Source: Escherichia coli
Lineage (GTDB): Bacteria; Pseudomonadota; Gammaproteobacteria; Enterobacterales; Enterobacteriaceae
NCBI RefSeq assembly: GCF_045037415.1
Contig: NZ_CP173440.1
Direction: 5' to 3' (one strand)
Length of the DNA stretch: 64,000 nt
Part shown: one piece after another, positions 30,001 to 36,000 of the stretch
Layout: every line of letters starts with the position of its first letter
Position numbering within the stretch: the stretch's first letter is position 1
Program-made: the position numbers

Positions 30001-33000
30001 CCGCCAGGGCAGATTTGCTTAACCCAGCCTTTTATCGCATGTCGTACAGTATTTCGACCAGTGACAGTTCTTTAACTGCTCTTTGGTAAGCCCGGATTGC
30101 CTCCGGGGAGTTGAGCAGACTTTCTTTGACCCGGTTAAATGGGATGCCTTTTACTTTCATTAGCTCATCTCCTTCAGGTGCTTTCTCGCTATCTCTGCGA
30201 TCCGCCTGATGACTGGGAAAACCTGATCACTGAACCTGGAGCATCTACTTTGTTGATACATTATACTGTGGGTTTTTCCGTCCGGAACTGACAAAATGCT
30301 ACACTTCGGATTAAAATACATTAGGGAAGATAGTATTTAGAAAGTGATGGGGAAATTATTATGTTTAAAGAGATTAAAAAATGGTTTGTTAAGGGCGTCA
30401 ATTATGAGACTGAGTTCATCGCAGCCGTAAAGCGATCCAAGAAGTGGAAACTTGAAGTTCCTAATATCTCTTTAAAAAAGACTCCATTTCTTGCTGGGGA
30501 AAGGGCTGCTATAGCTTTAAAAGTTATTCAGGACTATGCTTCAATGCATAGCCCGGAGGAAGTATCTCAACAATGTTTTGGGTATATGTATGGAATTCAG
30601 AGTGCTTTGGAAAACGCTTTACAAACTCCACTATATTATACATTAGGTTATATTGAATTTGAAAAGAGAACCAGTGTTTCATACAGAAATTCCAAAATTA
30701 GAAAGGAATTTGTATAATCCAGTTTCAGGCGTTGGGGCGATTGATTTACATGCCTGGCTGACGACTCCTAATCTTGAAATCATTGATCTTACTTTCGCAA
30801 CAACATATGGTATTGTGAATGATATTCCATCAGTAATTGGACGTTCTTCCTTTCAACATTACTCTGAGTTTAATGATAACATGGTCTATCATCCTCAATT
30901 AATCGGCGACGATTATTTGAAGAAGATTGGAGCCATCGTTGATTATAGTTCGTTGAATATTATTATTACGTAGTGCAGATAGCTATCGGTTATTATATAA
31001 CTAGGGGCATTCCTTGTTTTATCAGGCGCTTTGTAAATGTTTTCCTTCAGGGGGTGATATAAGGCGGGTTTTACGGTTAACAAAGCACCTTATTTTCTGA
31101 ATAACGGATTAATAACGCTCAAAATCATATTCTCGGTCAAAATCATAGTTTTTGCCTAGATTTTCATGAAGAGCCTCAACCCTTCCTTCATTTTGATGAG
31201 ACGGTCTCTGTATAGAAACATGAATTCCAGATACACCGGACGAAGCCTCAAAACCTTTAGCCTGTTTTGCGGCAGCACAAGATTGTTTTCGGTTTTTAAG
31301 AACTTTCTGTAAGCCTAGTAAAACGATGGAGAAGGCAAACAGCCCATAAAAACAATAAGTTACATAATCCCAATGCAGAAAATTAGCCATTGTGTATCTC
31401 ATATTTATAGTTGTTGAACACATTAGAGCCTATCGTCCTTGTATAGCCCTTAGCCTCTCTCATTTGATTACATTATAAACTATTTAACCCAGCCTCCAAC
31501 CCCCTGTTTTCATCACCCCCGGATGCAGCCTCAACTCTAAAAGGGGGCTTTACAGGCCATAGTCCATGGTGTATCCGTTGATACACAGTTGTTATCGCTG
31601 ACTGGCTATGAAAAACAGTCGTTGTTTATGCGCTGCACAGGCCCGGAAAGTTACTTTTTTCTCAGCCATCGAAACAGCACCCCGGCAGTTCTACCTGGTA
31701 AATTAAGGGGAATGACGTTTTCTTTTCCCGGCCGGGTAAGCAGACCGTCTTCGTAGTGTGTCAACGGGAGTCACGACGTCAGGAACAGACAGACCAGTGA
31801 GGTTTACGTGAATGAATCATCAATAAAAACCGAAAATGTGTTCCTCTTCTGGAGAGCCATTGAAGCCTTAACCCCTCAGGATATTGATAAGGAAAATGCC
31901 CGCGACAAACTCAACCCGGTTTACAAAGTAGGGGCAGGATCCATGCTTCCCTGGGATGACCCGGAACATACCCGTAAGGATATTGCGCCTGGCAAAGTGT
32001 GGCGCTACTCCGCTCAGGCGGGGGTTTATCATCTGAGCGTGATTACCAAAATGCTGGAGGATAAAATCGGTGCCCATGAAGCGGTACCTGAAGAACGTAA
32101 ATCAGGGAAATGCAGGCTTTTTGATATTGGTTTCAGTGAAGAAGGCATCCCCCAGCCAGCCACGTTCATGTTATCCCTGTCTGCATGGTCGGCGGCTCAG
32201 ATACTCAGGCATGATCGCGGCGTTTACGCTCTTCATGCTCCCCTTTGCTCCGATGTGTCCGACCTGCCCGCACCAAACGACAGCCTCCCGCTGGTGGATA
32301 GCGGTTTTTACGATTTTGATAATCTGACTCTTCATCTCATGCAGTGGGTGGACAATGAGGCTTATCGATTACAGGAGGAGGGACAGAAGGCCGATACAGA
32401 ATGGTTGAAGACGCTTGAGAAGCTGGTCATCGCAAAACTGTATTTTCCGGTAGAAGCCATGGATACGACGATCGTCAGTGTGGTTAAGTGTTCCCTGACC
32501 AGGAAGGCGAAAGTCATCCAGGAAGACAGTGCAAAGAAAGACAATAAAAAGAAAGAAGCGGTGCCCGATGACCTCATTAACAGTTTTTTCATTCAGGAAC
32601 TGCGAAATCTAGACGCGGAGTGGAGGCAAGGAGGGGGTGGGGCCGGTTTTAAAGACTTTATCATGGCGATAACCCGGGATAACCAACAGCGCCTCGATAT
32701 ACGTACTGAAGAAGGCCTGGATTTTGCATTTGAGAAACTGTTGCCCACACAGCCACCAGCTGGCTCCTGGCCTTCAAAGTACCCGCTGGCATTCAGCCAG
32801 CAGCTGGCCGTCAATGAAATCTGGACCAGAAATTACACTGAACCGGGTATTTTTGCTGTAAATGGTCCTCCGGGAACGGGGAAGACAACACTCCTGCGTG
32901 ATGTGGTGGCCGCAGTCGTCACCGATCGGGCGAGAAAACTGGTTAAACTCGGAGACTCTGCATTTAAAGCCAAAGACAGCCTCAAATACGATGACAGGCT

Positions 33001-36000
33001 GATACCCTATTATTCGCTTCACCCGTCTCTGGCGGGGAGTGCCATCGTGATTGCATCGTCCAATAACGGAGCCGTGGAGAATATCTCACTTGAGCTCCCC
33101 GGGATGGAAGCGGTACCGGAGGATGTGTCAGATCGCAGCGATTACTTTGGCGGGCTGGCTACCGTAATACTTAACAGGCCTGCCTGGGGACTTCTGGCGG
33201 CAAGGCTGGGCAATAAAAGTAACAGAGAGCAGTTCGTTAACACACTGTGGTGGGGAAATCTGCAGAAAAGTGAAAAAGGCGATGAAGCACCTCCGGAGAA
33301 GTTTTCACCCGAACGTGGAGAGGGGCTGAAATACCATCTGAATTTACTGCGACCGCCACGGAAAGTCAGAGAGCCTGCACTGACCTGGACTGAGGCTGTC
33401 ACACGTTTTGAACAGGCACAGGCGGTGGAGGAAGCCGAGCGTCAGCAACTGGTCGCCAGTTCAGGGCTAACGCATAAAATTGAGTGGCTCGAAGAACAAC
33501 GAAGAGTGTGGGAAGAAAGGAAGCAAACCGCAACGCTTCAGATTGAGGAATGCCGGAACGCGCTACAGGCGCTCTCTGACAGACTCGCCGCGATGGAAAT
33601 GACCCTGACCCTGTCCAGTGGAGATCGGGACGAACTCGATCAGCGCATCCACCAGCATGAAAAAAATAAACCCGGCCTTCTGGCTAATCTCTTTTCGCTG
33701 GGGAGGATATCGAAGGCATGGTGGGATCGTTATCAACGGCTGACAGACGAATCAGATTCTTTGCGGGCGACGTTGACTCAGCAACGGCAGGAACTGCAGC
33801 TGGCGCAATCAGAAAAACATAATGCAGACAATGAACTCAGGAGCCTTGAGCGTGAGCTCACTCAGGTGATCAGCAACGGTCAGGCGGTCTGTAAAGAGCA
33901 GGAACAGAATAATACCTTGCTGAAGCAGGCTATATCCGATCTGGGAGCCTCCTGGCCGGAGCGGACTGCAACAGATGAACGAAGGGAGTTGTCAGCACCA
34001 TGGCTTCATGAGCGCTGGAGAAAGGCGAGGGAAGATGTGTTTATCGCAGCATTAGACGTTCACCGGGCGTTTATTGAAAATAATCCTGTAAAAATGGCCG
34101 CTAATATAGGGCTTGCAATGGACTGGTTAAAAGGGCGAAAACTGACCGAAAAACAGGCGGGTCTGGCTCTCGACTCCTTATCTCTGGTCGTCCCGGTTAT
34201 ATCAAGCACCTTTGCGTCCATGCCCCGGATGTTCAGGGATACAGGTCAGGAAGCGATAGGCTGGTTGCTGATTGATGAAGCCGGACAGGCACAACCTCAG
34301 CATGCGATTGGGGCTATCTGGAGAGCAAAACGCACGGTTCTGGTAGGTGACCCAAAACAACTGGAGCCGGTCAGCGGTATTCCGTCCACTGTAGAGGGGG
34401 CGCTGGGAAAACATTATAAGATCCCGTCCTGCTGGTGGCCCGGAAAAGTCTCAGCACAGATACTGGCAGACCAGACGATGAACGTTGGCCCCTATCTGCC
34501 CGACCCGGAGTCAGAACAGATTTGGGTGGGCTGTCCGTTACGGGTTCACCGGCGCTGTGATGACCCAATGTTCAGTATCAGTAACCATATTGCCTATGAC
34601 GGGCTCATGGTCCACGGGAAAAAGCCGGGCCTGGTGGATTTCCCTGAAAGCGGATGGCTGGATGTGAAAGGGAGGACATGCGAGGGAAACTGGGTAGTGG
34701 AGGAAGGGGCGGCAGTGGAAAAGTTACTTTTGGCGTTGCGTCACCAGTATTCACTCACACCTGACGACGTGTTTCTGATCTCGCCATTCAAGGACTGCGC
34801 TAAGCAGCTTAACCGGATCGCAAAGAGGCTGGGATTCAGGATGGACAGAACGGGGACCGTACATAAAACACAGGGCAAGGAAGCTACTGTGGTTATCCTC
34901 GTGCTGGGAGGCAACATAAAAAGTCAGGGGGCGAAAGCCTGGGCGGCGGAAAAACCCAATCTTCTGAACGTCGCGGTAAGCAGGGCGAAACAACGCATTT
35001 ATGTCATCGGCGAGCGTGCATTATGGGAGAAGCAACCTTACTTTTCCACGCTGTCCCGGGCACTGGGAAGGCTGGATGTGCCGGTGAGCAACAGCAACCC
35101 GCGTGCGATGTCATATATGGAAGAGTACTTAACCACTGAATGGCGCTGATAAGCGCCAGGTCTGCCAGCTGTCTAATGCGGTATCGACCGCAATACCGGG
35201 TGACTATGACATGCCTGAGGGATGATAATCAGTCGGATATCTGCCTCTAATCTTTTCCTGATATTCCCTGCCGGACCATCAGCGTATGCAGGTGAGGCAG
35301 GGAGGTCTTCCCTCTGGTTTAGCAAGTTACTCATAAACGCTCGCCGACTTGTGAACTGGACACCAAAAGTTGGACCCTCACCAGGGCAACCAGCGAAGGT
35401 GCAGTAAAAGTTACTTTTATCTATAGGATTGCCAGGATTGCTGATGAGAGTTGTTAGCGAGCTTACCTGTTACCTCGGGAGGATTCTGCTTTACACGATC
35501 AAGACCGGTCCATGCATTGAGCTGCATCATTTTGCCGTTACGCTGCAGACGCCGGTTATAACGTTCCATAAATTTGAAAATATAGTTGGCTCTTACGCGA
35601 GGCGTTTTACTGTTGTAGTCAGCAATACCTTCAAACACGTTCCCTTTACGGTCAATAATTTTCCGGTGCAGCCACCATGTCCCAACCCAAAAAGAAGCAC
35701 AGGCGTCATAAGCGAGCTCACGCCAGGTAATTGCGGGGAAGTGGGATTTCACCTCAGCCAGATTTGATGAGTTAATCTGCATTGGGCCAATATCCCATGT
35801 GCCATTGGTGTTAAGGACGAAAGAGCCAATCTTTCCACCTTCGTTATCAAAAAGAGTAAAGACAAGGTCACGGTCAATCCCGAAGAAACGCGCGGCGTCA
35901 GTTAAACATTCGTTTTTAACCGTTTCGGGTACATTTTGGGGCTTCGGTCGATCCGGTGGGGGATTGAATGCTGCATTTGCATTGACGGTTAAAGTGGCGA

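Follow-up and report, generated by a model that had tools for sequence, protein, structure and literature searches.

A nuclease-less Upf1-like helicase in the traG-SLT interval of a Klebsiella-type megaplasmid: a candidate single-gene defence protein related to Mokosh

Introduction

Two described defence systems lie closest to the gene considered here. MkoC, the protein of Mokosh type II, is defined by a C-terminal nuclease of the PLD family in the same polypeptide, the HxK active site of which is needed for defence (10.1101/2022.05.11.491447), and the CnuH helicases of CoCoNuT carry a long helical insertion containing coiled coils, which has been proposed as a dock for a neighbouring wHTH-nuclease effector (PMC11090510). 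The gene in question encodes a protein of 1113 amino acids (aa) at 31808-35149 (plus strand, stop codon included) of a stretch of 64,000 nucleotides (nt) deposited as Escherichia coli (assembly GCF_045037415.1, contig NZ_CP173440.1), which is here called the window and which forms part of a Klebsiella megaplasmid of the pNDM-MAR type (IncHI1B/IncFIB, MOBH/MPF_F). The start codon of the gene is GTG, with GAGG about 7 nt before it, and RefSeq places a coding sequence at the same coordinates (WP_084456091.1, labelled "DEAD/DEAH box helicase"). Both neighbouring genes, at 31109-31423 and 35417-36046, lie on the minus strand, so that the gene is monocistronic, as a first-pass annotation of the window had described it.

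The product combines a helicase core homologous to that of MkoC with an N-terminal domain of its own and a C-terminal tail that is too short for a nuclease, and on balance we lean towards reading it as accessory cargo of the plasmid, a candidate one-protein defence (anti-phage and/or anti-plasmid) or anti-mobile genetic element system. A literature search on the protein, the locus, Mokosh type II and Upf1-like anti-phage helicases returned no description of the family.

Results

Helicase core and relationship to MkoC

Judged by its motifs, the product is a Upf1/DNA2-like helicase of superfamily 1 (SF1) with all motifs intact. Its two RecA-like domains carry the SF1B set, namely Walker A (GPPGTGKT, aa 353-360), motif Ia (SSNNGAVEN, 417-425), motif II (DEAGQ, 823-827), motif III (GDPxQLEP, 847-854), motif V (T1017-E1025) and motif VI (NVAVSRAK, 1054-1061), which were invariant or nearly so in alignments of 42 and of 194 relatives, and Pfam recognises a split AAA_11 (339-693 and 796-855) and AAA_12 (964-1070). 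A full-length AlphaFold2 model built on the 42-sequence alignment was confident (pLDDT 86.9; pTM 0.81), and the best Foldseek matches of the core were Senataxin, Upf1, Aquarius, Dna2, IGHMBP2 and ZNFX1. Sequence matches in PDB and NCBIfam were short and far below the curated cutoffs, and no housekeeping helicase model of NCBIfam came anywhere near its cutoff. The stand-alone Upf1/DNA2-like SF1 helicase with a complete motif set that the first-pass annotation had proposed is thus borne out by the motif conservation, by Pfam and by Foldseek.

In the model, RecA1 is divided into a first part (aa 343-520, 32834-33367), with Walker A at nt 32864-32887, a beta-hairpin at aa 386-404 and motif Ia, and a second part (aa 796-860, 34193-34387), with motif II at nt 34274-34288 and motif III in the form GDPKQLEP. 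RecA2 (aa 861-1090, 34388-35077) includes AAA_12, RVHRRC (912-917) and motifs V and VI, while a helical region that runs into the Q-motif precedes the core (aa 257-342, 32576-32833) and is conserved among the 194 relatives at S259-F260, D297, R299, W321-P322 and Q331-Q332. All of these segments are given on the plus strand, as are those of the following sections that belong to the protein.

The only strong library match of the helicase was a partial one to MkoC (PADLOC PDLC03924, Mokosh type II; E=5.3e-70, 235 bits), in which aa 319-1078 align in one stretch with positions 241-952 of a profile of 1136, and nine distant relatives show the same partial alignment pattern. The protein ends about 35 aa past this match, leaving profile positions 953-1136 unmatched, and there is no space for a PLD domain because about 50 aa remain beyond motif VI. 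The tail beyond motif VI has a median length of 44 aa (56 loci and 197 full-length family proteins), and the HxK(x)4D motif sought in these tails was absent from the 56 loci and from 197 of 197 full-length relatives; a Pfam scan of the helicase revealed neither a PLD nor a kinase domain. With so short a tail and without the nuclease motif, the helicase is related to MkoC but misses its defining feature. The plasmid matches H67 and H74 and longer family members, which had been considered as genuine MkoC, proved to be PLD-less relatives, and the comparison with the N-terminus of MkoC therefore uses the coordinates of the PADLOC profile only. This locus has neither the arrangement of Mokosh type I (a PLD nuclease gene next to the helicase and an STK domain in the helicase itself) nor that of CoCoNuT types II and III (downstream CnuE and McrBC-like GTPase/nuclease genes): its flanking genes are unrelated and on the opposite strand, and no neighbour was conserved across 87 loci. 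As far as profiles and alignments can tell, the family is a new group: single-gene proteins that lack a nuclease, carry an uncharacterised N-terminal domain and are related to the defence helicases of the Mokosh/CnuH kind.

N-terminal domain

The N-terminal domain (aa 1-232, 31808-32503) is an alpha/beta fold with five strands, and it is followed by a Lys/Glu-rich linker (aa 233-256, 32504-32575) that is disordered in the model (pLDDT <50) and shows a mean identity of 19%. The first-pass annotation had called an N-terminal region of about 350 aa novel, in agreement with which profile searches of about 340 aa found nothing in Pfam (no match to this region in any of 20 family members), in NCBIfam or, with a profile of the domain, among PDB sequences. 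The fold itself is widespread. Foldseek recovered it 340 times from AFDB50, and the 50 rows listed comprised helicases some 1000-1200 aa long and shorter entries, of which several are labelled fragments. A profile search returned at least 1,547 cluster representatives (50% identity) among 1.84 billion, and within the best 150 listed the domain is N-terminal in proteins of about 1000-1300 aa or lies in shorter proteins, which are probably fragments.

The conserved positions of the domain (W15, E19, P48-W49, W65, G113, S123, W127 and G166) are mostly Trp, Gly and Pro, with one invariant Glu (E19). Nothing like a nuclease motif was observed at the conserved positions of 194 relatives, and a binding or sensor role appears the more plausible assignment for the domain. 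An entry assigned to the fungus Gibberella intermedia (AFDB A0A420S4X7, 1073 aa) displays the same layout of N-domain and helicase with 34% identity, and represents either contamination or horizontal transfer.

Coiled-coil insertion

About 400 aa separate motifs Ia and II, as the first-pass annotation had stated, but only aa 527-715 of them form the coiled coil that it had extended over the whole length. The insertion in RecA1 proper comprises about aa 527-795, after motif Ia, and begins with an antiparallel coiled-coil hairpin (aa 527-715, 33386-33952; helices 527-552/554-619 and 633-715; pLDDT 88-96), the arm of which is about 10-12 nm long as estimated from helix lengths. The arms are the least conserved part of the helicase (19-23% mean identity) and gave weak matches to SMC/Rad50 coiled coils in the library searches. 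The tip of the hairpin (aa 620-640, 33665-33727) is conserved, with P622, G632 and W638 kept in 88-97% of the 194 relatives, and a helical return to RecA1 (aa 716-795, 33953-34192) carries the conserved residues E727, P731-W732, R741 and H752. The insertion is not a new feature, since the MkoC profile aligns straight across it and a similar one is known in CnuH (PMC11090510).

Family distribution and genomic neighbourhood

Relatives of the helicase were detected in Proteobacteria, Actinobacteria, Bacillota, Bacteroidota and Nitrospirae, with a sporadic distribution (at least 451 of 100,044 species genomes). Phages contributed matches in 4 of 50,697 records, one of which, the unannotated Klebsiella phage Kp4866-6 (OK490421.1, 45.5 kb), encodes at 8314-10887 a relative with 34% identity over aa 248-1067.

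All open reading frames (ORFs) within 5 kb of the helicase at 87 non-redundant loci were clustered all against all, and no neighbour family occurred in more than 7 loci; the largest clusters, judged by eye from sequence, resemble an ABC ATPase, a LysR regulator and an integrase. The unit is the helicase gene alone.

Defence genes were frequent among the varying neighbours. The two closest chromosomal homologues (54-55% identical) both stand beside defence genes: next to one of them come PsyrT/PsyrA and LmuA/LmuB (PsyrTA and Lamassu), and the other follows E1-E2 and JAB genes of CBASS type at the end of a prophage. Loci L002 and L005 are within clear defence islands. A PADLOC scan of the immediate large neighbours at 27 loci gave a strong match in the directly adjacent gene at seven, some of these being candidate systems or domain-level matches: ShosA; PDC-S02 with a GajB-like helicase; BrxHI (1112 bits); PDC-S57/PD-Lambda-1; GajA (815 bits); mREase_IV; and PDC-S26. 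This proportion is well above the few per cent expected by chance, where the expectation is a rough personal estimate made without a matched control and the sample is small. A helicase of the RecQ/DEAD type adjoins the gene at four loci, and at one locus (L004) a DEAD/MZB helicase and an RNase_H_2-domain gene form a nearby pair that we take to be MrfAB-like.

The traG-SLT cargo site

The 4-kb stretch around the gene matches 582 PLSDB records, 550 of which are from Klebsiella and many of which are 100% identical, and hundreds of Klebsiella megaplasmids (IncHI1B/IncFIB, MOBH) share an identical helicase. In tblastn, the plasmids matching with at least 60% identity were nearly all Klebsiella-type megaplasmids, and Salmonella did not appear among the organisms listed. 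On its left the site is bordered by traG (24731-28696, plus strand) and on its right by a lytic transglycosylase (SLT) gene convergent with the helicase (35417-36046, minus strand). A small ORF of 104 aa, divergent from the helicase (31109-31423, minus strand), gave no match in family searches, and its orthologue adjoins the helicase in one of the two other plasmid lineages (L009), with 91% identity.

Three diverged Klebsiella plasmid lineages, represented by the window, p12208-IMP and pKO-16-21-NDM-1, have in common the gene order traF-traH-traG-helicase-(SLT)-Trx, with DsbA and then HAD further along. The helicases of the two other lineages are 79% and 58% identical to the copy in the window, and backbone proteins are 60-97% identical between lineages (TraG 68-71%, HAD 72%, TraH 94-97%); since lineages so diverged hold it there, the helicase is an old resident of the traG-SLT site. 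The 68-71% identity of TraG stands against 88-91% for SLT and the value given for TraH, and this divergence possibly represents diversification of entry-exclusion specificity.

IncHI1 and IncHI2 plasmids possess the same traF-traH-traG...SLT-Trx-DsbA backbone (SLT 66%, TraH about 50% identical) and lack the helicase. In IncHI1 (L092, p852-MDR) the site holds the HAD gene alone, and in IncHI2 (L091, pYD786-1) it holds HAD together with a 428-aa HNH endonuclease gene at 10300-11589. This HNH protein matched weakly a phosphorothioate-dependent restriction endonuclease model of NCBIfam (E=0.003) and had no match in a PADLOC scan; a defence role of it would be putative. The contents of IncHI1 and IncHI2 mark the traG-SLT interval as a cargo site and show that the MOBH/MPF_F apparatus exists without the helicase, and together with the comparison of lineages they agree with the variable zone after traG that the first-pass annotation had seen. 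Its statement that this is not a standard annotated transfer gene is likewise supported. Several copies in Klebsiella megaplasmids are N-terminally truncated, interrupted by ISEc52 or reduced to a remnant of aa 851-1113 only (H56-H59, H64-H66, H69-H71), which indicates that the helicase can be lost without loss of the plasmid.

MobH was encoded within 10 kb of a helicase relative at 2 of 80 genome loci, both of the same type of Acidovorax integrative and conjugative element (ICE). The helicase is accordingly not present wherever MOBH/MPF_F machinery of this type occurs, as IncHI1 and IncHI2 also demonstrate. The Acidovorax integrative element (L003, L006, L007, L028, L044) includes a TraI_2 (MOBH) relaxase and a helicase homologue of 43% identity, and also an FlhC-like activator, a GspE/PilB-type ATPase, a DsbC-like thioredoxin and, directly after the helicase, an HTH repressor-like protein. 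A conserved pair of helicase and SLT in MOBH elements was considered and rejected, the 204-aa minus-strand gene of Acidovorax being this repressor-like gene (weak match to the NCBIfam RstR family, E=5.6e-07).

Further along the window, transposase genes of the ISL3 family (ISCfr12-like) and the ISNCY family (ISKpn21-like) at 43373-46172 end the conserved backbone stretch, and beyond them lie genes of metabolic type, for hemB, dihydroorotase, an M14 carboxypeptidase and a threonine-tRNA ligase-like protein, which are annotated in pKpvST147B_virulence too.

Upstream region

A divergent intergenic control region (31424-31807) precedes the helicase and is conserved in the two other lineages in alignment. 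It includes the second copy (31458-31709, plus strand) of a direct repeat some 250-270 bp long, the first copy of which is at 29038-29291 (plus strand; 82-94% identity between the copies). The two copies bracket 2.4 kb of small ORFs (29531-29887 and 30361-30973) that are absent from the two other lineages (L009 and L010) and had no match in an NCBIfam search; the arrangement suggests that a module was inserted here and that the divergent control region was duplicated in the process. Each repeat copy has a small minus-strand ORF on its left.

Two palindromic elements were observed in the repeat. The palindrome GTGTATCCGTTGATACAC at 31569-31586 has its second copy at 29150-29167, these two being the only ones in the window, and its first 15 bases (GTGTATCCGTTGATA) are conserved in L009 and L010. 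At 31645-31660 lies a perfect copy of a dispersed near-palindrome, AAAAGT(T/A)ACTTTT (GGAAAGTTACTTTTTT). This copy, which may be an operator in common with promoters of the tra region, does not vary upstream of the helicase among the three lineages (the window, L009 and L010). When up to 3 mismatches are allowed, the near-palindrome has 26 matches in the window where 1.0 would be expected, the matches spanning 1931-42518 (for example 12055, 12383, 19437, 19539, 20783, 23362, 23380, 29225, 31645, 35405 and 36044-36060), and several of these are in intergenic spaces of the tra region, namely upstream of mobI, at the traF/traH junction and in the divergent SLT/Trx region. The space upstream of mobI is where we presume oriT to lie. 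The near-palindrome (AAAGTTACTTTT) is probably the operator of a plasmid regulator, and its occurrence both upstream of the helicase and at tra-region promoters suggests a shared regulator through which the helicase would be co-expressed with the transfer region. The first-pass annotation had placed the promoter of the gene in this repeat copy, with the palindrome: the repeat is real and carries both palindromes, but a sigma-70 consensus scan found no convincing plus-strand promoter inside it, and by eye a possible extended -10 (TGGTAAATT) was noticed at about 31696-31704.

Discussion

The defence reading, to which we lean, is drawn from a core homologous to MkoC and MkoA and from relatives that are sporadic, spread over several phyla and often beside defence systems, and it corresponds to the single-gene helicase-based defence that had been put forward as an alternative in the first-pass annotation. 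In such a system, an accessory gene in the traG-SLT cargo site of an IncHI1B/IncHI5-type backbone would be expressed together with the transfer region, given the operator-like motif that is also found at tra-region promoters, and would yield a predicted ATP-driven 5'-3' translocase on single-stranded DNA or RNA. The Trp-rich N-domain and the conserved coiled-coil tip might serve to recognise a nucleic-acid structure or a protein that is specific to the invader, or might mediate self-association, and restriction could come from the motor itself, which would unwind or strip intermediates of replication, of transcription or of R-loops; alternatively, the motor might pass its substrate to a nuclease of the host, in the manner of eukaryotic Upf1 and MOV10. 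A more specific form, which we regard as doubtful, is a nuclease-free immune or competition system of one protein, in which the N-domain sensor and the coiled-coil tip would recognise the invading replicon and block it by the motor or through a host nuclease, and which would be induced with the transfer genes and police phages and plasmids in the host. In a mirror-image version, the translocase would strip host CRISPR or defence complexes off the plasmid.

Several points weigh against a defence function. A nuclease or other effector domain is not recognisable in the helicase, whereas Mokosh needs its PLD active site (10.1101/2022.05.11.491447). The association with defence genes comes from a small sample without a matched control, in which some PADLOC matches are at the candidate or domain level. 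The gene also occupies one fixed backbone position in three lineages, and of about 570 plasmids having this backbone nearly all carry it there, which looks more like a resident backbone function than like freely exchanged cargo, and the MOBH ICE of Acidovorax carries a helicase near its relaxase as well.

Among the rival explanations is a transfer-associated helicase, as the first-pass annotation had suggested in view of the helicase domain that MobH relaxases lack. It would supply the missing unwinding at oriT during conjugation, and its position in the Tra region right after traG in three lineages, the distance of about 1.5 kb between helicase and TraI_2 relaxase in Acidovorax and the upstream motif dispersed through the tra region would all suit that function. 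The idea is disfavoured because IncHI1 and IncHI2, with the same local synteny, do without the gene, because disrupted copies exist and because MobH is so rarely near; the near confinement of plasmid matches to Klebsiella-type megaplasmids and the membership of the protein in the Upf1-like clade, not the RecD/TraI-like clade of relaxase helicases, add to this, and we consider a transfer function very unlikely. A maintenance helicase of very large plasmids, concerned with replication forks, R-loop resolution, repair or recombination, would explain the near-universal retention in this backbone and the structural resemblance to Senataxin/Sen1 and Dna2, and the four loci with an adjacent RecQ/DEAD-type helicase, like the DEAD/MZB and RNase_H_2 pair of L004, could be read in the same sense. 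Such a role is unlikely, considering that relatives are sporadic among species genomes and show no lineage-wide housekeeping pattern, that disrupted alleles occur in otherwise complete plasmids and that no housekeeping model of NCBIfam approaches its cutoff.

Upf1-like helicases remodel nucleic acid-protein complexes, and this general property would also suit an anti-defence or establishment factor, a translocase that shields the plasmid on entry or once resident, for instance through the dismantling of Cascade R-loops or the removal of host defence proteins from plasmid DNA. A protective role would agree with the missing nuclease and with the possible co-regulation with tra genes, and chromosomal CRISPR spacers of K. 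pneumoniae match traH of 413 and traG of 401 plasmids (PMC6965323); the plasmids so targeted may be this plasmid group, in which traG is located just upstream of the helicase. Most relatives, however, are found in chromosomes with defence systems at their side rather than in the leading regions of plasmids or in anti-defence loci of phages, and they are very rare in phages, so that we hold this explanation to be quite unlikely. That the gene is a decaying, functionless remnant of Mokosh type II which has lost its nuclease is scarcely credible: the partial MkoC match without PLD could be taken for such a remnant, but the PLD-less layout with its own N-domain is kept in at least 1,547 clusters over several phyla, all motifs are invariant and the full-length model is confident.

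The helicase is carried by most Klebsiella megaplasmids of the pNDM-MAR/IncHI1B type, which are vehicles of carbapenemases and hypervirulence loci, and if it does restrict phages or rival plasmids, the host range of phage therapy and the plasmid ecology of a priority pathogen would be affected. It also represents a large, Mokosh-related family of several phyla without a nuclease and with an N-terminal fold that is uncharacterised. Demonstration of a defence mechanism would bear on how helicases of the Upf1/MOV10 type restrict parasites without cutting, and would correct a likely habit of defence-annotation tools to ignore such genes or to label them Mokosh.

Comparison with known systems

With MkoC the protein shares the state of a single large gene, a Upf1-like (COG1112-type) core and the same long RecA1 insertion, with 760 residues aligned in one stretch; it differs in that the C-terminal PLD nuclease is absent, in that its N-terminal 318 aa do not match profile positions 1-240, and in that the score of 235 bits spans the helicase core alone, both profile ends being unmatched. 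MkoA (Mokosh type I) and CnuH (CoCoNuT) belong to the same helicase clade and have a coiled-coil helical insertion after Walker A, but they are paired with neighbouring effectors (MkoB with PLD; the wHTH-nuclease CnuE; the McrBC-like CnuBC), none of which is conserved here, and they carry N-terminal STK, SmpB-like OB or RelE-like domains that differ from the N-domain of this family. Similarity to Hhe, ProA, Nhi/AbiO and the helicase-like protein of PLuB is at the level of SF1 motifs, the matches spanning 35-115 residues only and being far below curated cutoffs; Hhe and Nhi carry nuclease domains.

TraI of F and TrwC of R388 are likewise SF1 helicases encoded within a transfer region. Their helicases are RecD-like domains fused to the relaxase and are essential for transfer, whereas the helicase described here belongs to the Upf1-like type, is encoded apart from MobH and is missing in IncHI1 and IncHI2. 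The eukaryotic Upf1-like proteins (Upf1, Senataxin/Sen1, IGHMBP2, Aquarius, MOV10, ZNFX1 and Dna2) resemble it in the RecA1/RecA2 core (Foldseek E from 5e-15 to 1e-9) and in the 5'-3' SF1B motif set, but at 10-20% identity and with other accessory domains, and the insertion of the plasmid protein is much longer, forming a hairpin with about 90 residues per arm.

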